From an uncultured Cytophagia bacterium (GTDB taxonomy: Bacteria; Zhuqueibacterota; Zhuqueibacteria; Thermofontimicrobiales; Thermofontimicrobiaceae), in contig CAYYMH010000004.1 of the NCBI GenBank assembly GCA_964472785.1, positions 66,995-130,994 on the forward strand: DNA of 64,000 bases, given 5' to 3'. How positions within the stretch are numbered: the first letter of the stretch is position 1; the number at the start of each line of letters is the position of its first letter. The notes under the pieces were generated by a model. That model searched no databases, was not told the DNA's origin, and worked only from the letters and a program-made list of their open reading frames with translations. This document shows, one piece after another, positions 8,415-64,000 of the stretch. The translations under genes were made by a program, and so were the position numbers.

Positions 8415-9143
8415 TTATTTTAAAAATTCTCCCGCTACCTTCATCAGGTGTTTAGGATTTTCCACGATCCACTTTTTATCAATAATATTGCTTTCAACTA
8501 TTGCCTGTTTTGTAAATTCATTGGTTACCACAATCGTCTTCATCCCTGCGTTTTTTGCCGCCTTAACACCATTGAGCGAATCTTCAATAACCAGGCAATG
8601 TGTTGGTTTGACATCTAACTCGTCTGCCACTAATTGATAAATTTCAGGATCGGGCTTACCTGCCGATACATCATCACGCGTCGCGATAAATTCAAAAAAA
8701 TCAGCCAAAGCCAGAATTTGCAAAACTTTCTTTGTCTGCTCGCAGTGGGACATGGTTGCCAGTCCGGTTTTCAATCCTTTTGATCGTACTATTTTGAGCA
8801 GATTCATATTATAGGGACAAAGATATTTTTTCATCAATTTCGTATCATTGAGAAACGTTTGGTAAATTTTTAATCTGACCTGAACGAATGCCTGCCAAGC
8901 CGTTTTGACGCCAAATTCTTCCATTCTTTTTTCGGCTGCACTTTTCAAATTAAACTTATTCATCAAATGGAGGGCAACCTCCTTCCGCGAAAGCCCAACG
9001 ACATTTTTAAATTCGGCAATGATTTCTGATTCATTGAGTTTACTTTCTGATAAGTGCATTGCTGCTTCGGCGTATGATTTTGCTTTTAATATTTCCGTCT
9101 GAACCAGCGTTCCGTCCAGATCAAATATTACCGCTTCAATCAT
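8415..9143 (-). CDS. HAD-superfamily phosphatase (beta-phosphoglucomutase-like, subfamily IA)
   Basis: DLDGT, KPDP and EDS motifs; start overlaps the upstream stop by 4 nt. Confidence 0.88.
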   Translation of the reverse strand: MIEAVIFDLDGTLVQTEILKAKSYAEAAMHLSESKLNESEIIAEFKNVVGLSRKEVALHLMNKFNLKSAAEKRMEEFGVKTAWQAFVQVRLKIYQTFLNDTKLMKKYLCPYNMNLLKIVRSKGLKTGLATMSHCEQTKKVLQILALADFFEFIATRDDVSAGKPDPEIYQLVADELDVKPTHCLVIEDSLNGVKAAKNAGMKTIVVTNEFTKQAIVESNIIDKKWIVENPKHLMKVAGEFLK

Positions 9144-9997
9144 AATACAATTTCTCCAATCGTCAATATTGCCACAAAAAAGAACAGGAAGCCAAGCCCC
9201 TTTTCCAAATAATGTTGTGGAATTTTCCTCGATAGCACTGAACCGAGCTGCGCACCAATAATGACTCCCGGCACACTAAATATCACAATATTAAACACTG
9301 TTTGCAATGTGGCTTCGCCATACGTCACAAATTTATAAAAATGTCCGATCGACGCCAGGAGTACGGTAACCGAGATTACAAAAACACTGGTTGCGACTGA
9401 AACGGCACTGGGAACCCGGCAGCGTTGGAGTAAAAAATAACCGTTTAGTTCACCAAGTCCAGTCGAAATCATTCCCACAAATAAGCCGCCGATGCCAGCA
9501 ATAAACCTGCCCTGATTTTTATTGCAAACCGTATAGCATATTTTTTCATTATCCTTTGTAATCAAACACGTTTCCGCTTTTTCTCCGCCATAGTCTTTTT
9601 CTATTTGCTCATCCAACAACTTCACCAGGTGAGGCTTCGGCGAACGCAGAAAACTGGCTGATACAGCAAACAAACCCATGCCAAATATTGCTTTCAAGAC
9701 ATCTGCTTCGATCGCGCCCGATGCCCAGGTACCAATCAACGCCAACGGAACCGTACCCATCAACAGCGCCAGTCCCAACTTATAATCAATTAATTTTTTG
9801 TGCGCGTAAGCGTAAAATCCACTGGCAAAACCAAAGACTTCTGTAATCAGACCAGTGCCGATCGCAATTTCAGGTGATAGCCGCAAGCCCAGCATAAAGA
9901 ATGGAGCAAAAAACGTAGCTCCGCCGACACCGGACGCCATGGCAATAGTGGCAAATAGTAAAGAAGCTGGAAACACAAACCAATATTCGAACGTCAT
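9140..9997 (-). CDS. Sulfite exporter TauE/SafE family membrane protein
   Basis: GVGGATFFAP and STGLGE repeats; about 8 hydrophobic segments; GAQLGS motif. Confidence 0.85.
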   Translation of the reverse strand: MTFEYWFVFPASLLFATIAMASGVGGATFFAPFFMLGLRLSPEIAIGTGLITEVFGFASGFYAYAHKKLIDYKLGLALLMGTVPLALIGTWASGAIEADVLKAIFGMGLFAVSASFLRSPKPHLVKLLDEQIEKDYGGEKAETCLITKDNEKICYTVCNKNQGRFIAGIGGLFVGMISTGLGELNGYFLLQRCRVPSAVSVATSVFVISVTVLLASIGHFYKFVTYGEATLQTVFNIVIFSVPGVIIGAQLGSVLSRKIPQHYLEKGLGFLFFFVAILTIGEIVL

Positions 9998-10055
9998 TTA
10001 CTGTTCCTATTTTTTATTTCATTCGATCCGCCTTTACCGCACCTGTTTATTGGAA

Positions 10056-11495
10056 CTATTTTCCAATTATTTTTCTCACAAACTTCACCACCGCATTATC
10101 AGTTAATCGCGCCGCAAAAGCCTGAGTTGCGGGTCGCTTTACCATGTCACCATAGGTCGGATAAATATGGATCATCTTCTGAATTTTGTGAAATGGGATG
10201 CCCAGAGATTTCGCAAGCTGGGCTTCATGCAAAAGATCAGCCGCGCGCTCACCGATAATATGAATACCGAGCAGATTTCCACCTTTGCCAACAACAAACT
10301 TGCTCATTCCCGTAGTCTCCAAATCAGTTTTTGCCCGATCAACTTTCTCATAATTGAATGTGTAAACTTTGACTTTTTTACCGTATTTTTCCCGGGACTC
10401 CTGTTCGGTTAAGCCAGCATGAGCAAACTCAGGATCAGTAAAAGTTGACCACACAATATTTTCGTAATTTACTTTTCGTTTGATCGGTAACGGTAAAACT
10501 GCATTCGGTACAGCAATGCCAGCGTGGTATTCAGCAATATGGCTGAACTGATAAGACCCGATGACATCGCCCAAAGCATAAATATTTTTCGCAGTCGTGC
10601 GCAATGTTTGATCCGTTTTAATTCCTTTTTGGGAATATTCCACACCGGCATTCTCCAAATCCAATCCATCCACATTGGGTCGCCTGCCCACTGCAATCAG
10701 CACGTTGTCAGCCTCAATCTCTTTATCATTACCATTTTGATTGTTTTTTACGGAAACAACAACCTTGTCTCCCTTTTTTGCAAGCGCCATTGCTCTGGAT
10801 TGGGTCAAAAATTCGACCCCATCGTCAACCATTCGATCCATGAGAATTTTAACTAATTCACGGTCTTCCCGAGAAAGGATGTGGTCAGTCATTTCAACTT
10901 GAGTGACTTTTACACCCAACCGGCTTAGTGCAGATGCCATCTCGGTTCCGATGGGTCCGCCGCCAATAATGATGATGGATTCAGGAAGTTTGTCCAGTTC
11001 AAAAATATTTTCATTGGTTAAATATGGGACGTCTTCTATCCCCTCAATAGGCGGAACAAAAGGACTGGACCCGGTTGAAATGATAAATTTATTTGAAGAA
11101 ATCGTCTGGTCACCAATTTTCAAATGGTGATTATCGATAAATTTTGGAGATCCAATAAATACGTTAATCCCCATGTCTTCAAACACTTCAGGCTTCTCTT
11201 CCTCGTACACCTGCTCGCGAATTTTCCGAACATGCGCCATCACATTGTCCGTATTTAATTCCATCTTTCCAGCAACTGTTAACCCGTATTTTTCGAGTTT
11301 CTTTACATGATCGGCAATCTCACTGGATTTGATTAACGCCTTGCTGGGCACACATCCGTACCAGGTACAATCCCCACCTATTTTTTTCTTTTCAATAAAA
11401 GCAACTTTTTTCCCCAATCTATTTCCAAGTATCGCTGAACTGATTCCTCCAGAACCCGCTCCGATAACCGTTAAATCATAGTCATAGTTAGCCAT
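10056..11495 (-). CDS. Class I pyridine nucleotide-disulfide oxidoreductase (MerA/Lpd-like, no metal-binding C-terminal CC)
   Basis: GAGSGG, redox-active GGDCTWYGCVPSK, GGGPIG and HIYPT motifs; no HMA domain and no terminal Cys-Cys. Confidence 0.88.
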   Translation of the reverse strand: MANYDYDLTVIGAGSGGISSAILGNRLGKKVAFIEKKKIGGDCTWYGCVPSKALIKSSEIADHVKKLEKYGLTVAGKMELNTDNVMAHVRKIREQVYEEEKPEVFEDMGINVFIGSPKFIDNHHLKIGDQTISSNKFIISTGSSPFVPPIEGIEDVPYLTNENIFELDKLPESIIIIGGGPIGTEMASALSRLGVKVTQVEMTDHILSREDRELVKILMDRMVDDGVEFLTQSRAMALAKKGDKVVVSVKNNQNGNDKEIEADNVLIAVGRRPNVDGLDLENAGVEYSQKGIKTDQTLRTTAKNIYALGDVIGSYQFSHIAEYHAGIAVPNAVLPLPIKRKVNYENIVWSTFTDPEFAHAGLTEQESREKYGKKVKVYTFNYEKVDRAKTDLETTGMSKFVVGKGGNLLGIHIIGERAADLLHEAQLAKSLGIPFHKIQKMIHIYPTYGDMVKRPATQAFAARLTDNAVVKFVRKIIGK

Positions 11496-11509
11496 TTCAA
11501 AACTCCTAT

Positions 11510-11815
11510 TTACGTTTCATTTTCATCATTTATTTTTTTAAATTCCCAAATCATCGGTACAATCATCATAATCATCAAAGCGACAACCGTGCTAATTAAA
11601 AAGCTCAAACCTAAAGAAATATCAGTAACAAGTAGAAAATGTAAAAACCTTTCTGCAGCCACGAACAATCCTATTAGCACGACAACTGCAAAAAGCCAGT
11701 TGCGAAATCGAATTTGATTTCCGCAGGAAGGACAAGTAAATTTACCCCAATTATCCCAACCTTTGATAATAGAAACCGGTCCGATTTTCATTCCACATTC
11801 AGGACATTTACCCAT
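11510..11815 (-). CDS. Small membrane protein with an N-terminal zinc-ribbon (CPEC...CPSC)
   Basis: Two CxxC pairs then two hydrophobic helices; GGAG Shine-Dalgarno before ATG 11815. Confidence 0.7.
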   Translation of the reverse strand: MGKCPECGMKIGPVSIIKGWDNWGKFTCPSCGNQIRFRNWLFAVVVLIGLFVAAERFLHFLLVTDISLGLSFLISTVVALMIMMIVPMIWEFKKINDENET

Positions 11816-11842
11816 TTTTATCTCCAATATTTAATTATTCAA

Positions 11843-12019
11843 TGTTTGAACGAAAACTCTAATTTTTGTCATTTTGAGGAGTACCTCGTCAAGCTCGGCA
11901 TAAACTCCACCACGAAAAATCTCATCCCACTAAGTGCTTGTCTATGTTAGGCTTATTGGTGTGAAATTCTTCATCCGCCGAAGGCGGATTCAGAATGACA
12001 TTTTGTTTTCGTTTAATCA
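11843..12019. repeat. REP doublet (TGTCATTYTGA...TCAGAATGACA) inside imperfect outer inverted repeats
   Basis: TGTCATTTTGA 11867-11877 and TCAGAATGACA 11990-12000; hairpin ATCCGCCGAAGGCGGAT; outer TGTTTGAACGAAAAC 11843-11857 vs GTTTTCGTTTAATCA 12005-12019 (13/15 match). Confidence 0.65.
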
Positions 12020-12070
12020 TTACTTATCAATTTCATAAAGTTAATTCATAACTTCCCATCTAATATAAAA

Positions 12071-12781
12071 CTACATTCGTTCGGGAACAGGCGTTTTTAT
12101 ATTCTTCCGTTTTTTAATTTTTTTAAAAATTGTCGGTATGAACATAAGTAAAATGAATATTCCCAACGCAACAAAAAACTGCACGGAAATGATGTTATCT
12201 AAAGAACTACCAAGCATCGCATTAATGAAGCCGCCAGGAGCCATTCCAATAAATGAAGCAATGAAAAAGTCTCGAAATTTAATTTTCGAAAGTCCGGCTC
12301 CAAAGTTTACTGCATCGTATTGAAAAAGAGGAATCAATCGCATGAAGATCATCATTCGAAATCCGTTTTTTTCGATGCTATCATCGAATGATTTGATACG
12401 CCCTTTGTGAAGCCATTCAAAATGTTCGATAAATTTTCTGCCGAAAACCCGGGCGATCATAAACGAAAGTGATGCACCCAAGGTCGCCCCTATTAAAATA
12501 TAAATCGTTCCGAACCACTTTCCAAAAGCCAAACCACCTGCGAGTGACATGACTCCGACAGGAATCACAAGCACTGCACCGCGAAGCGCATAAATGACCA
12601 TAAAAACGATCGGCGCCCAGATACCAAAACTTAAAATGAAATCACGAATTTTTTCAGGTTTGAAGTCCGATATTTTCAAAGGTGTTAATCTGAATACAAT
12701 CGCTATGATTGCTATAATTGCCATCAGTATCAGAATCCTGATCCATTTATTCATTTTATTACCGCTATCTTGTTGTTCCAT
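12071..12781 (-). CDS. TVP38/TMEM64 (DedA/VTT, SNARE-associated) membrane protein
   Basis: LAGGLAFG, GATLGASLSF and MRLIPLFQYDAVNFGAG motifs. Confidence 0.9.
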   Translation of the reverse strand: MEQQDSGNKMNKWIRILILMAIIAIIAIVFRLTPLKISDFKPEKIRDFILSFGIWAPIVFMVIYALRGAVLVIPVGVMSLAGGLAFGKWFGTIYILIGATLGASLSFMIARVFGRKFIEHFEWLHKGRIKSFDDSIEKNGFRMMIFMRLIPLFQYDAVNFGAGLSKIKFRDFFIASFIGMAPGGFINAMLGSSLDNIISVQFFVALGIFILLMFIPTIFKKIKKRKNIKTPVPERM

Positions 12782-12831
12782 CGTATTACTCCGTATGAGT
12801 TATTTTTGAATAGTCATATTAAATACTATTT

Positions 12832-13524
12832 TCATTTTCCCAAATCTACATACTTGGTATTTGGATTATCCAACTTCCATTGTCTCCACGTGGTCAACGT
12901 TGACGGAATTTCATCGACGACCTGATCCGCGTACAAACCGCTGATACAAACAAGCGGCGTGCTTCCTTCTTTGAAATTCACATACGGATACCATATACTT
13001 TCGGTCTGATGATCGTACAGTAAAAACGTTCTCTCATAAGTCCACCCACTGGGAGCAAAGGTTAATGTTTCGCCTTCAATGTCACGGCTGTACACGACAG
13101 CCAAATTTTCCAGCGGTCAGTAATTAACCGAAACATTAAGCCCGCCAATTCTATCGTTCACAACTTCATGGCTCGCCAATATCTGCACAGGATAAGCCCT
13201 CACATCATCATTAATATTTACTCCAATGACAGAAATTCCAGAATTGTCACTGGGGTATCCATTCATCCCTTCAGATATGACTTGCGGGAAATTAATTGGC
13301 TGAATTGCATTCGGACCAAGTCCATAATTAAATTTTCCCGGCTCTAATCCGTACTCTTTCACCGCATGGGTAATATCCCATTCTTTACCAGTTCTGTCAG
13401 TAATTGTGACCTGATTATTGGTATCATCCTCTGTTATGTCAGAATTTGTGCTACTTTTATTTTTACAGGACTGTGCGATCAAAACAACTAAAGTAATGAT
13501 CAAAAACATTTTGAATAATTTCAT
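12832..13524 (-). CDS. DUF3179 (seleno)lipoprotein, 230 aa, with Sec at codon 136 (joins two track ORFs across an in-frame TGA)
   Basis: Track ORFs 13117-13524 and 12832-13104 are in the same frame, separated only by TGA CCG CTG GAA AAT. Read-through gives VSVNY-U-PLENLAVVYSR, matching the DUF3179 VTYCPL motif. Downstream SGWTY...YDHQTESIW matches the family. Lipobox-like IAQSC. Confidence 0.85.
13086..13119 (-). promoter_or_regulatory. Bacterial SECIS-like element
   Basis: mRNA reads UGA, 14 nt, then GGCUGU-CGUGU-ACAGCC: a perfect 6-bp stem with G then U in the apical loop, the loop starting 20 nt after UGA. Confidence 0.7.
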
Positions 13525-13543
13525 CTGATTTTCTCCTTAATAA

Positions 13544-14260
13544 TTAAGCTTTAAATGAAAATTCCCGTTCAAATAATTTTTTTAAAATCGTATACGTTTT
13601 TTTCTTATAAAAAAATTGATGTTCTAAATTGCGTCTTTTCAGATGCTCCCACAAAGCGACTAAATCATCATAGGTATCGATATCATATTTCATTTCCAAT
13701 TGGGCAATTTCCAAATCTTTTTTTTGTGCACAATTTATTGTTTGCTGAAACACAATACTCGTGCTCCAATCGATATATTTGAACAATACCGGATAAAATT
13801 TAGTCGAACCGATCAAATAATAACCTCCGTCGTTAGCAAGCCCTAAAACGATATCGTTCTCATCCAATGCCGTAAAGCCGCGAATAATTGTGGTTTTATC
13901 CAAAGTCGGAATATCACTCCCGATCAACAATACCTTTTCGTAACCTTCATCAAAAATTTCACGCATGGCATTGGACATTTTTTCTCCCAGATCACGACCG
14001 TGCTGCTGATAATAATCCAAATCATCTCCCAGCCAATTTTTGATCATCTCATCAGCATGAGACGGTGTGTAAAACCATTTGACATCACAAAACTTGACAT
14101 CTTTGAACAGTTCAGCCAAATCCTCAACCATTGCCTGATATAATTCCAGCGACTCCTCCGGCGCTAATTGGGGTTGAAGCCGGGTTTTTACATTGCCGTA
14201 CTCTGGTGCTTTTATAAATATAATTAATGCATTATTTTTTTTTGATGTTGTGCCATTCAT
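13544..14260 (-). CDS. TIGR04282-type transferase (DUF2064, GT-A-like; 'rSAM/selenodomain-associated transferase 1')
   Basis: FIKAPEYGNVKTRL, QHGRDLGEKM, LIGSDIP, LGLANDGGYYLIG and DIDT..DL motifs. Confidence 0.88.
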   Translation of the reverse strand: MNGTTSKKNNALIIFIKAPEYGNVKTRLQPQLAPEESLELYQAMVEDLAELFKDVKFCDVKWFYTPSHADEMIKNWLGDDLDYYQQHGRDLGEKMSNAMREIFDEGYEKVLLIGSDIPTLDKTTIIRGFTALDENDIVLGLANDGGYYLIGSTKFYPVLFKYIDWSTSIVFQQTINCAQKKDLEIAQLEMKYDIDTYDDLVALWEHLKRRNLEHQFFYKKKTYTILKKLFEREFSFKA

Positions 14261-14368
14261 AATTTAAACACCTTATCTTCAGTCTGTATTGTAATAAAAT
14301 ACAATTATTATGGTTGTCAATCAGAATTTACAATTAGACTTTTATTTGAACCAATAGTATTTATATTT

Positions 14369-14902
14369 TTAATTGACAAAAAAAGCAGATTCCAATCTGC
14401 GCCCTGCCTTGATTACTCTTTTAGATGCATCATCAACCAGAAAGTTGCTTGAGTTTACCTCCGTATTGTTTAAAACAAGCTTATTTACATCAATAGGCTC
14501 TGAAAAAGAATGAATCAGTCTTTCAACTTTTTGGATGGCTTTCTCAATTGCAGTCTTTATGTCAGGCTCACTGAGCGGGCTTTGCAGATAAACTTCCGCC
14601 ATTTGCTGGCATTCATTGAAAATTTCTGTGGCAGGTTTTGGCGTGACGCCTGAATTCTCAAGTAATTTTAATGTATCATATTCATAGCGAATCTGATTTT
14701 TTAGGTGCATTTGGCTGCCGGTATTCAGCCGCAGGACTGACCTTAATGACGGTGCTCGAAGCAGAAAATTAATATTGTATTTACCCTGAGCCAAAAATTC
14801 GACAGTCATGTCTTCGGATTTTTTAACGCCAAATATTTCTTTTATCTCGCTTAATTTCGTGTATTCCCAAGCAATTAATAAAAAGTGATTTTCATTTCCC
14901 AT
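14369..14902 (-). pseudogene. Truncated aminoglycoside-phosphotransferase-like kinase remnant
   Basis: Has N-lobe FLAQGKYNINF...RLNTGSQMHLKNQIRYEY and a Brenner-like NTEVNSSNFLV, but only 177 aa: the middle region seems deleted and there is no downstream DWE-type motif. Confidence 0.55.
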
Positions 14903-14964
14903 AATTATCCACGTTTTTTTTAAATGAAAAGTATCATCTATTTTATTTTTCGCAGAGATGAAAA

Positions 14965-14987
14965 TGCCATTGAAGCGGTCAATGGCA
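14965..14987. repeat. Intergenic perfect hairpin TGCCATTGA-AGCGG-TCAATGGCA
   Basis: 9-bp perfect inverted repeat; REP-like or terminator-like. Confidence 0.45.
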
Positions 14988-15108
14988 AATTGAATTCTTT
15001 ATTTAAATCCGATTGAAATTTTGAAACATAGAAAATTTTGTATTTCGAATTGAATGCCTCAAACGTTAAAAAATATTTTTCACCAAATCCTTGCTGATAG
15101 CTAATCGC

Positions 15109-15798
15109 TTACTTAAATTCATACCACTGGGCCAACGTATCCGGTGAAAAACCTAATTTGTAACCAATCTGCAATAGCCAATTTCTGAATAAATTCTTCG
15201 CTTTGCCCTCTTCAATCCAGCGGCGTGCAGAGGTGTTAATCCTGTAAGGTAAAATAATGACATCCCCTTCTTTCTTCAGTCGACTGCAAAAATCCATGTC
15301 CTCCATGAGTGGAATCTCTTTGTAACCGCCAATTTTCTGAAATACATTCCGGCGAACAAAAATTCCCATATCCCCGTAGAACGTATTTAGTAAATGATTT
15401 TTTAAATTGGACATCACTTCCACAGTTCGAAAAAACCATCCCACCTCGTCCAGATTATACTCAAAAGCACCGCCAACAATGCGCTCGTTCAAAAATAACT
15501 TTTTAACAGCATTTATCGAATGTGGATGTGGGGTTACATCGGCGTGCAAAAACCATAAAATATCACCGGCAGCTAATTTTGCACCGGCATTCATTTGTGC
15601 ACCTCTGCCGCGTGGCGCCTGAATAACGTTGGCATATTTCTTGGCTATTTTTACCGTATCATCTGCGCTGTTTGCATCTGCGACTATAATTTCGAGGGTG
15701 CTATCCAACTGGTGCAAATAATGCAAAAGTGAACCGATGTTTTCCTCTTCATTCAACGTCGGAATAATCACTGATATTTTAATTTTGGATGTCGTCAT
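15109..15798 (-). CDS. TIGR04283-type GT2 glycosyltransferase ('rSAM/selenodomain-associated transferase 2')
   Basis: SVIIPTLNEEENI, RGAQMNAGA, WFLHAD, YGDMGIFVRR, PLMEDMDF and TSARRW motifs. Confidence 0.9.
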   Translation of the reverse strand: MTTSKIKISVIIPTLNEEENIGSLLHYLHQLDSTLEIIVADANSADDTVKIAKKYANVIQAPRGRGAQMNAGAKLAAGDILWFLHADVTPHPHSINAVKKLFLNERIVGGAFEYNLDEVGWFFRTVEVMSNLKNHLLNTFYGDMGIFVRRNVFQKIGGYKEIPLMEDMDFCSRLKKEGDVIILPYRINTSARRWIEEGKAKNLFRNWLLQIGYKLGFSPDTLAQWYEFK

Positions 15799-60955: not shown

Positions 60956-61095
60956 TTTTTTATGAGCTATTTTGATATTGTGATAAGATCTATTAGCAAC
61001 TCGAAAACTTAAGGACCAATAGGCACGATATATTTAATCCGTGAAAATCCGTGCCAATCTGTGGCTAAAAAAAAACAAAACACCCCAACTTTCCC

Positions 61096-61124
61096 TTGCA
61101 TCTTTCTTTCAGATATTGTATTAT
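61096..61124 (+). promoter_or_regulatory. Possible sigma70 promoter of the CHAT-NB-ARC-TPR gene
   Basis: TTGCAT-17 nt-TATTAT, with TG immediately before the -10. Confidence 0.45.
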
Positions 61125-61186
61125 TTGATATAAATTTTTCGAAATTCTTTTACTGTTCTGCTGAAAATAAAAAAGAGGGGCTTACC

Positions 61187-64000
61187 GTGATTACTATTCT
61201 CGACTTTCAGATAACAGCCAAATCCGAAAATAACTTTGCACTGGAAATCTTCCAACGCGACAGCAGCCAGCCGCTGGCAAAAACCAAGTTCGAGTTCCAA
61301 CTGGATTACATGACCGACTTTCAACTGAACCAGCTCGAATTTGACGGCAGAGATCCGGCAGGGCGGTTTGACCGGCTAAAGGAGTTCGGCAAAACACTGT
61401 ATCAAAAATTGTTCACCCCGGAGGTTGAAAAAATTTGGGAGGAATACAAAACCGACAGTGATTTTTTGGTGCTCTGCCTGCGCATCGATCCCGAAACATC
61501 GGGGCTGGAAAAGCTGCCCTGGGAGACGCTGAACAATGGCGAGGAATTTATTGCCGCGGGCGCGAAAACCGGCATGTCGCGGCTGCCGCTGGACATCGCG
61601 CCGCAAAAAACGCTGGACCCAATTCCCCGACCGCTCAACATGTTGGCGCTGGTCTCCAGTCCGATGGATTTAGGTGATGGTGAACGGCTGAACATGGAGC
61701 AGGAACAGGAACATCTGCTGCGGGCAGTCAACGATCCGGCTGGCGCGGGACGCATCGATTTGACCATCGAGGACGAAGCCAAACTTTCGCTGCTGGAAGC
61801 GGAACTGGAAAACGGTTACGCGATTCTGCACTACAGCGGACATGGCTTTTTTGACGAATCCGGCGGCGGACTGCTGCTGGAAAACGACCGCGGCAACAAG
61901 CGCACCACCGGTACCGCGGAAATTTTGGACTCGCTGCAAAAAGGAGAAAAATCGCTGCGTTTAGCCGTGCTCTCCGGCTGTCAGACCGCGCGCACGCTGG
62001 ACAGCGCAGGATTCGCAGATTTAGCCCGCGGACTGATCCGGCGGCGCCATTTGCCCGGTGTGATCGCCATGCAGTTTTCCCTGTCCGATACTGCCGGAAT
62101 GCTGTTTGCCCGCACCCTGTACGAAAAAATCGCTGCGGATCAATCGCTGGAAATCGCGGTGAGCAGCACCCGGCGGGAACTGCTGCGCAGCGATGAAAAT
62201 GTCGTTCGTGCCGATGCGTTTGCACCGGTGCTGCTGACCAGTTGCGGCGAATGCCTGCACACAACAGAACCGGAAACAGCCGACGCCGGCGACGATTTGG
62301 ACATCGATTTCAGTTTTTATCTGCAACTGCCGCAGCTCAAAACCCGGTTTTACGGCAGGCGCAAGGAATACCGCGCCATCCGCGACGGGCTGATCGGGAA
62401 AGATCACCGGCTGGTGATGATTCACGGCATCGGCGGTATCGGTAAAACCGCACTTGCCAGTCACGCGGCTGCCCGGCTCAAAGATCATTTCAAAGGCGTG
62501 TACGCGTTCGACTGTTCCACGGGCGCGCTGTCGCCGGAGAGTGTGCTGCTGGAGCTGCACCGCTATCTAAAACTGCGCGGCGTGAAAGCGCTGGAACAAC
62601 TGCTGCATGCTTCGCTCAAGCCGGCGCAATTGGGCACGTTTCTGGGACAGGTGCTCTGCCAACTGCCATTGCTGCTGATTTTTGATAACTTCGAGAGCCA
62701 GCTCACGGACACGACAAACGGGCACGCCATCCGCGACGATAATCTGCGCGTTTTTCTCAACACGCTGGTGAAAACCACTGAGTCCGGCACCCGCTTTATT
62801 TTCACCAGCCGCTACCTGTTCGATTTGGACGAAAAACGGATCGGTGATGTGATCACGCTGCCGCTGCACGATTTGAGTTTAGCCGAGGCACTGGGGTTGA
62901 TGCAGAAACTGCCCCACCTGTCCCATTCGTCGCACGAAAACAAACTCGCTGCCTTTGAAAAATTCGGCGGTCACCCCTACGCCCTGATCGCGCTGGACCG
63001 CCACTGCGGGGAAGCGCCGCTGGACAAAATTCTCCAAGACGCCCGGTCTGTAAAAAAAGAGCTGCGCGGCTTTCTCGCCATCGAGCTCAATTATAAAAAA
63101 TTGAGCGACCGCAGCCGGGAACTGCTCAATAAATTGGCTGCATTCAAAAAACCAGTGGAACTGGCGGCAGCGGAATGGGTGATGGGTGAGAAGGTAAAAC
63201 TGGGTAAGGATTTTTTGGACAAATTAAACAGAGACGAAATGCCCGATGAATTGAAAAAAATGTCTGATGAAGAATTATTAAAAACATTTGAAGAATACCT
63301 TCCGGAGCAGCGCCGCGCCGAAGACATGAGCCAGCCCATCCGCGAACTGATCAACTGGGGCGTGCTCACGCCGATCTTTGATGACGGAAAAATGCAGGCG
63401 TTGGCAGTGCACAGCCTGGTGCGCGATTTCTGCCGGGATTCGCTCACTCATAAAGTTTGGAAACAGCACCTGATCGATGCGGCAGCTTATTTCACCAATC
63501 AGACCAAACTGGTGAGTCATGACGAAAAATCACCGGCAGCCGTGTTCACTGAAATGGAGGCTTTTGATCTGCTGGTTGAAGCGGAGGAATTTGAGGAGGC
63601 AGCAAATTTGTTAGTAGATGCTCACGAATTAATCAGCCGCTGGGGATTTGACCGCTATCTGGAAAGCCGGTATTTGCTGTTGTTTAAAAAAGTGGATCGA
63701 AAAACTGAACCAGCTTTAATCCATAATCATGCTATGTTATTGGGCCATCGCGGCGATTTCGGGGCGGCGCTGGAAGGGTACCAAAAATCACTGAAAATTG
63801 AAGAGGAACTTGGCAACAAAGCCGGCGTGGCACAATCGCTCCATCAAATCGGCTATATCCATTACCAGCGCGGCGATTACCCGGCGGCGCTGGAAGGGTA
63901 CCAAAAATCACTGAAAATTTTTCAGGATATTGGAGATAAAGCCAGCATTTCAGCCGCGCTCCATCAAATCGGCATGATCCATCAACACCGCGGCGATTAC
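61187..64000 (+). CDS. CHAT (caspase-like) protease - NB-ARC/STAND NTPase - TPR protein, partial (runs off the window end)
   Basis: Manual translation from GTG 61187 (GAGGGG Shine-Dalgarno) is open to the window end. It shows LPWETL, HYSGHG (His, 61841) and LSGCQTA (Cys, 61979), then GIGGIGKT, LLIFDNFE, FIFTSR, GGHPYAL and VHSLVRD, then 40-aa TPRs (AALEGYQKSLKI...LHQIG). Confidence 0.9.
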   Translation, partial: MITILDFQITAKSENNFALEIFQRDSSQPLAKTKFEFQLDYMTDFQLNQLEFDGRDPAGRFDRLKEFGKTLYQKLFTPEVEKIWEEYKTDSDFLVLCLRIDPETSGLEKLPWETLNNGEEFIAAGAKTGMSRLPLDIAPQKTLDPIPRPLNMLALVSSPMDLGDGERLNMEQEQEHLLRAVNDPAGAGRIDLTIEDEAKLSLLEAELENGYAILHYSGHGFFDESGGGLLLENDRGNKRTTGTAEILDSLQKGEKSLRLAVLSGCQTARTLDSAGFADLARGLIRRRHLPGVIAMQFSLSDTAGMLFARTLYEKIAADQSLEIAVSSTRRELLRSDENVVRADAFAPVLLTSCGECLHTTEPETADAGDDLDIDFSFYLQLPQLKTRFYGRRKEYRAIRDGLIGKDHRLVMIHGIGGIGKTALASHAAARLKDHFKGVYAFDCSTGALSPESVLLELHRYLKLRGVKALEQLLHASLKPAQLGTFLGQVLCQLPLLLIFDNFESQLTDTTNGHAIRDDNLRVFLNTLVKTTESGTRFIFTSRYLFDLDEKRIGDVITLPLHDLSLAEALGLMQKLPHLSHSSHENKLAAFEKFGGHPYALIALDRHCGEAPLDKILQDARSVKKELRGFLAIELNYKKLSDRSRELLNKLAAFKKPVELAAAEWVMGEKVKLGKDFLDKLNRDEMPDELKKMSDEELLKTFEEYLPEQRRAEDMSQPIRELINWGVLTPIFDDGKMQALAVHSLVRDFCRDSLTHKVWKQHLIDAAAYFTNQTKLVSHDEKSPAAVFTEMEAFDLLVEAEEFEEAANLLVDAHELISRWGFDRYLESRYLLLFKKVDRKTEPALIHNHAMLLGHRGDFGAALEGYQKSLKIEEELGNKAGVAQSLHQIGYIHYQRGDYPAALEGYQKSLKIFQDIGDKASISAALHQIGMIHQHRGDY
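63763..63919 (+). repeat. 120-bp-period TPR-encoding nucleotide repeats
   Basis: 37 identical nt (GGCGGCGCTGGAAGGGTACCAAAAATCACTGAAAATT) at 63763 and 63883; CTCCATCAAATCGGC and CGCGGCGATT also recur at 120-nt spacing. Confidence 0.9.

Follow-up and report, generated by a model that had tools for sequence, protein, structure and literature searches.

A Conserved In-frame UGA in a Short-form DUF3179 Gene from a 64-kb Metagenomic Contig Segment Very Probably Encodes Selenocysteine

The stretch of DNA analyzed in this study, referred to here as the window, comprises 64,000 nucleotides and contains a co-oriented run of minus-strand genes (8415-15798) that holds a gene of the DUF3179 family divided by an in-frame UGA codon. 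This gene, with the UGA read as selenocysteine (Sec, U), is designated Sec-DUF3179. The features of the run are listed below in the direction of transcription, with the elements of the DUF3179 gene following the gene itself.

15109..15798, minus strand: TIGR04283-family GT2 glycosyltransferase (246.7 bits, cut-off 182)
14369..14902, minus strand: 177-aa ORF between the two transferase genes, with no Pfam or NCBIfam match
13544..14260, minus strand: TIGR04282-family glycosyltransferase-like protein (DUF2064/CofC-like; 208.9 bits, cut-off 134), 19 nt upstream of the DUF3179 gene
12832..13524, minus strand: complete putative Sec-DUF3179 gene, 230 codons plus a TGA stop at 12834..12832
13465..13524, minus strand: predicted signal peptide with the lipobox-like IAQS-C20 (Cys codon 13467..13465; helix at residues 2-20 in the model)
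13117..13119, minus strand: in-frame UGA, codon 136, aligned with the invariant Cys of DUF3179
13086..13102, minus strand: SECIS-type hairpin, separated from the UGA by a 14-nt spacer (-8.9 kcal/mol)
12835..13116, minus strand: post-UGA coding part, 94 codons, with the conserved DUF3179 motifs FAPSGWTY, YD.(E/Q)TES.W, ISG and W..W...P
12071..12781, minus strand: DedA/VTT-domain membrane protein (PF09335, 1.5e-28), 50 nt downstream of the DUF3179 gene
11510..11827, minus strand: TIGR04104-like zinc ribbon, below the cut-off
10056..11495, minus strand: MerA/lipoamide-dehydrogenase-like FAD pyridine-nucleotide disulfide oxidoreductase (PRK06370 subfamily, 1.4e-132, below the equivalog cut-offs)
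9140..9997, minus strand: TauE/SafE-family membrane protein (PF01925, 1.1e-33)
8415..9143, minus strand: HAD hydrolase (HAD families)

When its internal TGA is translated as Sec, the region 13524..12832 (minus strand) yields a single 230-residue product that reads ...NVSVNY-U-PLENLAVVYSR... around the recoded position and, over a longer stretch, ...GGLNVSVNY-U-PLENLAVVYSRDIEGE...; a ribosome-binding site, GGAG, lies ~9 nt 5' of the ATG. Under translation table 11 the same frame appears as two ORFs, 13117..13524 (135 aa) and 12832..13104 (90 aa, with a TTG start), which represent the two halves of the gene, and the true stop is the second TGA, at 12834..12832. A preliminary description of this DNA had proposed that these ORFs are one gene, and the profile search agrees: the read-through product matches Pfam PF11376 (DUF3179) at 9.3e-34 (117.6 bits, cut-off 27) in a single stretch, residues 97-225, that spans the UGA and is limited to positions 26-146 of the 292 in the profile. 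Logan contigs from two separate microbial-mat metagenome runs carry this same sequence across the TGA, with zero variant letters; the runs with the sequence were all DNA runs, and there was no RNA run among them. A scan of the window for further TGA-split ORFs gave no convincing candidate.

Homologues were collected by a search of 5.8 billion proteins and by a scan in which each GTDB species was represented by one genome, from which the best 80 of 586 relatives were kept as a set of loci. Approximately 25 of the homologous proteins are 127-150 aa in length and stop at exactly the UGA column, with endings such as ...VAVVY, ...VAVTY and ...TAVAY, a pattern that is consistent with gene calls cut off at a conserved stop. 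The DNA of two of these truncated homologues has TGA at this point followed by ~90 further conserved codons. Among full-length proteins with Cys at the column, P0003 (227 aa, 45% identity, 94% coverage) has F-C-P-L and is a short-form Cys orthologue, and others read YCPLC (P0026), YCPLT (P0031) and FCEL (P0032). The preliminary description had placed Y-U-P-L exactly where DUF3179 proteins have Y-C-P-L and had suggested aligning homologues for Cys or Sec at this column. In that alignment the codon is TGA in 65, TGC or TGT in 14 and CGC (Arg) in 1 of the best 80 of 586 relatives, C-P-L is present in all 12 of the aligned Cys forms, 10 of which also have the second Cys, and two loci from truncated gene calls, beyond the 80, again have TGA. 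The loci with the Sec form come from genomes labelled Calditrichota, KSB1, Latescibacterota, Gemmatimonadota and Krumholzibacteriia and from many Desulfobacterota; loci from Olavius algarvensis symbionts (L052 and L077) are among the relatives. The highest identity to the window gene in the GTDB-species genome scan, in which the source genome itself was not among the matches, is 50%. When the gene is compared with locus L002, the part before the UGA is 60% identical and the part after it 65%, with a dN of 0.25 and a dS of 1.25 for the latter (dN/dS ~0.2); therefore, the region that follows the UGA is under purifying selection as protein.

A single base change converts TGC or TGT to TGA, and a recent nonsense mutation of a Cys codon, or a sequencing or assembly error at it, would also divide a gene in two. 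A pseudogene or artefact of this kind is, however, difficult to reconcile with a TGA that is present at the same column in several phyla, with the gene calls that end there, with the agreement of the two metagenome runs and with a downstream hairpin that covaries (see below). Conservation of TGA at the column, the covariation and the two-run identity effectively refute this explanation, and we consider it scarcely credible.

The locus with CGC at the Sec/Cys column, L057:2004-2639 from Krumholzibacteriia, has also lost the hairpin and the H-E pair (DVEVVDD) and is probably an inactive or repurposed paralogue. Separately, some genomes of Calditrichota, KSB1, Latescibacterota and unclassified bins have two Sec-DUF3179 paralogues each, on separate contigs or far from each other (L009/L018, L012/L014, L013/L028, L015/L039, L019/L034, L020/L030, L024/L048 and L027/L059).

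The frame is open whichever residue the TGA encodes, which would suit an alternative code or plain read-through, where a reassigned or near-cognate tRNA inserts Trp, Gly or Cys at UGA. Three observations argue against such decoding, which we regard as very improbable. TGA serves as an ordinary stop in the window, where it terminates 7 of 39 long ORFs and is the codon at which the Sec-DUF3179 gene itself ends; the homologues that lack TGA have Cys at the column; and the UGA is accompanied by a SECIS-type hairpin that is weak in the Cys forms.

This hairpin lies within the coding sequence and is formed by the arms GGCUGU (13102..13097, 5') and ACAGCC (13091..13086, 3') closed by the loop CGUGU (13096..13092), so that the RNA 3' of the UGA reads CCGCUGGAAAAUUU-GGCUGU-CGUGU-ACAGCC. 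The perfect stem, the loop and its distance of exactly 20 nt from the UGA are present at 13102..13086 as first described. The published model of the bacterial SECIS element specifies a loop of 3-9 nt and a stem of 4-16 bp, a G within the first two nucleotides of the loop that is usually followed by G or U, a spacing of 16-37 nt, and a minimum free energy (MFE) of -7.5 kcal/mol or lower (PMC13188914). The window hairpin lies within these ranges on all four counts, its loop (C-G-U) having 5 nt, its stem 6 bp, its spacing 20 nt and its MFE a value of -8.9 kcal/mol, and the earlier proposal of bacterial SECIS geometry is thus sustained both by the model and by the covariation described next.

Covariation was assessed in a gap-free alignment of 66 Sec loci and 48 columns. 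In the 6-bp helix, 80.8% of cells pair, as compared with 69.2% in shuffles, and cells in which both partners have changed number 38 against 11.3 expected, a count reached by 0 of 500 shuffles. The covariation score is 0.306 for this register and at most 0.09 for all six slid registers, four of the six pairs covary, and G25 and U26 of the loop are invariant. Variants of the stem include GGCUGU/ACAGCC in the window, GGGUGU/ACACCC in L006 and L007, GACUG/CAGUC in L009, GGCCGC/GCGGCC in L004 and GGGAGU/ACUCCC in L061. In their best register the Sec loci show 89% pairing and a mean MFE of -9.3, whereas the 14 Cys loci show 60% pairing and a mean MFE of -5.7, a weak hairpin. The stem-loop is short, and on folding energy alone it is unremarkable relative to shuffled or context sequence (z = -0.39 to -0.86); the significance of this putative signal rests on the comparison of homologues and not on thermodynamics. 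The conservation of the hairpin could be attributable in part to the amino-acid motif LAAVYSR, a motif that the Cys forms keep in part.

Relative to the E. coli fdhF-type SECIS and the bSECIS consensus (PMC13188914, Fig. 2), the window element is similar in being an in-frame hairpin just after the UGA, in its small apical loop with G and then U at positions 2-3, and in its 20-nt spacing and MFE. It differs in having a stem of only 6 bp with no conserved lower helix, and binding by SelB is a prediction. The Desulfobacterales branch differs from the consensus in its use of a register shifted by 3 nt: in loci L041-L055 the hairpin is GCGGCUG-UGUA-CAGCCGC, with 7 bp and a 4-nt loop, and the peptide LAAVYSR is unchanged. 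A 161-nt contig of another organism, from run X3, matches the window only over 13084..13123, the core of UGA and hairpin, and shows 4 differences there. Among organisms in the mat, no other part of the gene is as strongly conserved in its DNA as this recoding signal.

A second apparent UGA-CCG-CU, located in a hairpin at 14987..14965 that holds UUGACCGCU, was rejected as a recoding site: the surrounding DNA is intergenic, AT-rich and dense in stops. This element (14965-14987, minus strand) is a 9-bp hairpin, UGCCAUUGA-CCGCU-UCAAUGGCA, with a run of U behind it, in the intergenic space that follows the TIGR04283 gene. It probably serves as a terminator in which UGACCGCU occurs by chance, and it does not represent a second Sec site.

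As stated in the preliminary description, the genes for Sec synthesis are absent from the window: ORFs of at least 290 aa, apart from the open-ended ORF at 61061..64000, contain no SelA, SelB or SelD domain, and in the 64 kb ARAGORN finds no tRNA, including tRNA-Sec, and there is no Rfam match. The lack of any sel gene or tRNA-Sec in this 64-kb segment is what would be seen if the gene were a relic, descended from a true Sec gene in an organism that has since lost the Sec machinery, so that the UGA terminates translation and gives a 135-aa fragment or nothing useful. A relic would not readily account for 94 downstream codons that are free of frameshifts and extra stops and are conserved like the upstream part, for the perfect 6-bp stem of the hairpin, or for the same arrangement being kept in the closest relatives, and we judge this explanation improbable. 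A 336-aa AIRS-family protein is encoded ~0.8 kb from Sec-DUF3179 in a related locus (L004:4470-5480), beside a gene for an iron-dependent repressor. It was considered as SelD and rejected, with 76.9 bits against a cut-off of 125, and is below every NCBIfam cut-off (ThiL, HypE and SelD).

On the basis of these comparisons, UGA codon 136 very probably encodes Sec in one intact gene of the DUF3179 family, although the insertion of Sec itself is inferred. The preliminary description had called this a hidden selenoprotein. The selenoprotein part of that claim is supported by the conserved UGA, the frame and the hairpin, but the word "hidden" overstates the novelty because DUF3179 has already been listed as a selenoprotein family: DUF3179 (PF11376), with the motif UxxC/T, is in the tables of prokaryotic selenoprotein families of PMC9312934 (2022) and PMC13188914 (2026), both of which credit Zhang and Gladyshev 2007 (PMC1976440, Olavius algarvensis symbionts). 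For the same reason, the gene is a well-supported added member of a known family together with a correction of annotation.

The window protein nevertheless belongs to a different and shorter branch of DUF3179 (~230 aa, with a lone Sec in UPL[V/A/I/E]), which is clearly of the same family as the listed proteins and has its Sec at the same position. It resembles the listed Sec-DUF3179 in its Pfam family, in the presence of Sec at the invariant Cys column followed by P-L, and in the SECIS hairpin directly downstream. The listed proteins have UxxC/T, whereas UPLE of the window and the 51 short forms (with V, A, I or E) do not conform to this motif and have no resolving Cys. The UPLT form is a branch of ~300 aa that occurs among loci L061-L077, one of which is from an Olavius symbiont, and the nine long Sec forms that were aligned (L062-L077) have UPLT (8) or UPLS (1). 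As compared with the listed proteins, the window protein is ~230 aa in length and has an extra N-terminal module, I-x-D-R-T-G-K-x-W-D-I-T-H-A, and in FCB-type genomes the signal peptide of short-branch members usually includes a Cys at about position 20. The classic Cys DUF3179 proteins with CPLC (e.g. those of Photobacterium, Pontibacter and Sulfidibacter; L074, L075, L064 and L076) are exported and share with the window protein a fold family and the elements H-E...N, C/U-P-L, S-G, Y, D..T-E-S-L-W, G, W and P. They differ in having Cys in place of Sec, a second Cys (CxxC), a length of ~310-450 aa, a second half that is missing from the window protein, and no conserved hairpin.

The residues that are invariant across 42 short forms are Asp43, Ala54, Gly70, Glu120, Sec136 (U136), Pro137, Leu138, Val144, Arg147, Leu154, Ser159, Gly160, Trp161, Tyr163, Phe167, Asp171, Thr174, Trp178, Gly196, Trp213, Trp216 and Pro221. 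Of the conserved elements, H119-E120, N123, U/C-P-L, S-G, Y163, D171, T-E-S-L-W, G196 and P221 are also found in the long Sec forms and in the Cys forms. The position of the second Cys of CPLC is occupied in the short forms by Val (39), Ala (4), Ile (3) or Glu (2), the last being the residue in UPLE of the window. Cys193 (in CISG) was considered as an alternative resolving residue and rejected, being Cys in just 25 of 51 short forms. Because the second Cys of CPLC is replaced and Cys193 is not conserved, the Sec has no conserved partner, as had been anticipated from UPLE in the earlier reading of a Sec that acts alone.

The N terminus has the form of a signal peptide, MKLFKMFLIITLVVLIAQS-C20. 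The segment MKLFKMFLIITLVVLIAQSC with IAQS-C20 fits a PROSITE-style lipobox pattern, AQSC being a non-canonical lipobox; the pattern fits 23 of 55 short forms. A Cys near position 20 is kept in most homologues of the FCB type, and homologues from Desulfobacterota have signal peptides without this Cys; therefore, export is general and lipidation would be specific to a clade. The protein is thus probably exported and lipid-anchored, in line with the extracytoplasmic location that had been proposed from the lipobox. An AlphaFold2 model calculated with 42 sequences is mostly β and has a pLDDT of 94.1 and a pTM of 0.83. A sequence search of solved structures gave no match to the Sec-DUF3179 protein, and in a Foldseek comparison of the model with solved structures the best E was 0.16, with TM < 0.25.

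The flanking genes are conserved to a limited extent. The order TIGR04282-DUF3179-DedA is kept in the two closest relatives, L006 and L007, the latter of which also has TIGR04283 and the MerA-like gene, and the TIGR04282 and DedA neighbors recur in these two loci only. A MerA-like gene is located within 3 kb of Sec-DUF3179 in 6 of 82 loci. Clustering of the flanking ORFs of the 82 loci identified no universal neighbor and no real family present in more than 9 loci, and there is no ArsS-type radical SAM gene among the window ORFs scanned. The 177-aa ORF that separates the two transferase genes has an N-terminal part that resembles a kinase N-lobe by eye and for this reason may be a decayed phosphotransferase gene.

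Expression of the gene is expected to follow the standard bacterial pathway. SelB-GTP-Sec-tRNA(Sec) would bind the hairpin in the coding sequence, 14 nt downstream of the UGA, and the bound SelB complex would deliver Sec to the ribosome at this codon in place of release factor 2. Translation would then continue for 94 codons to the second TGA, which has no such hairpin after it. The product would presumably leave the cytoplasm by the Sec translocon and be acylated at Cys20, with the selenol standing in for the invariant Cys of the family. Because this selenol replaces an invariant Cys and has no CxxC partner, the Sec probably functions outside the cytoplasmic membrane, either as a lone nucleophile or by coordinating a soft metal or metalloid.

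A more specific and speculative possibility, which we consider unlikely as it stands, is that the short lone-Sec DUF3179 is the extracytoplasmic selenol component of a system for handling metalloids or soft metals (As, Se or Hg). Such a role is suggested by a confident model that has no likeness to solved structures, and by the gene run, conserved between this genome and its two closest relatives, in which TIGR04283 and TIGR04282 ("arsenosugar-type" transferases) are found with DedA, the MerA-like reductase and, in the window, TauE. Binding or reduction of the substrate by the Sec might then take place outside the membrane, with the flavoprotein as the electron source inside.

The assignment of Sec to codon 136 leaves the existing picture of selenocysteine decoding unaltered. 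It indicates that the present gene as called, like dozens of database proteins (127-150 aa) that stop at the UGA column, is likely to be a truncated call of one selenoprotein, and it adds Calditrichota, KSB1, Latescibacterota, Gemmatimonadota and Krumholzibacteriia to the Desulfobacterota in which Sec-DUF3179 was known, with the short lone-Sec branch set apart within DUF3179. The conserved neighbors (the MerA-like reductase, DedA and TIGR04282/TIGR04283) provide a lead to function, and the replacement of a single invariant Cys by Sec would single out this residue as the active site in an orphan fold that is exported.
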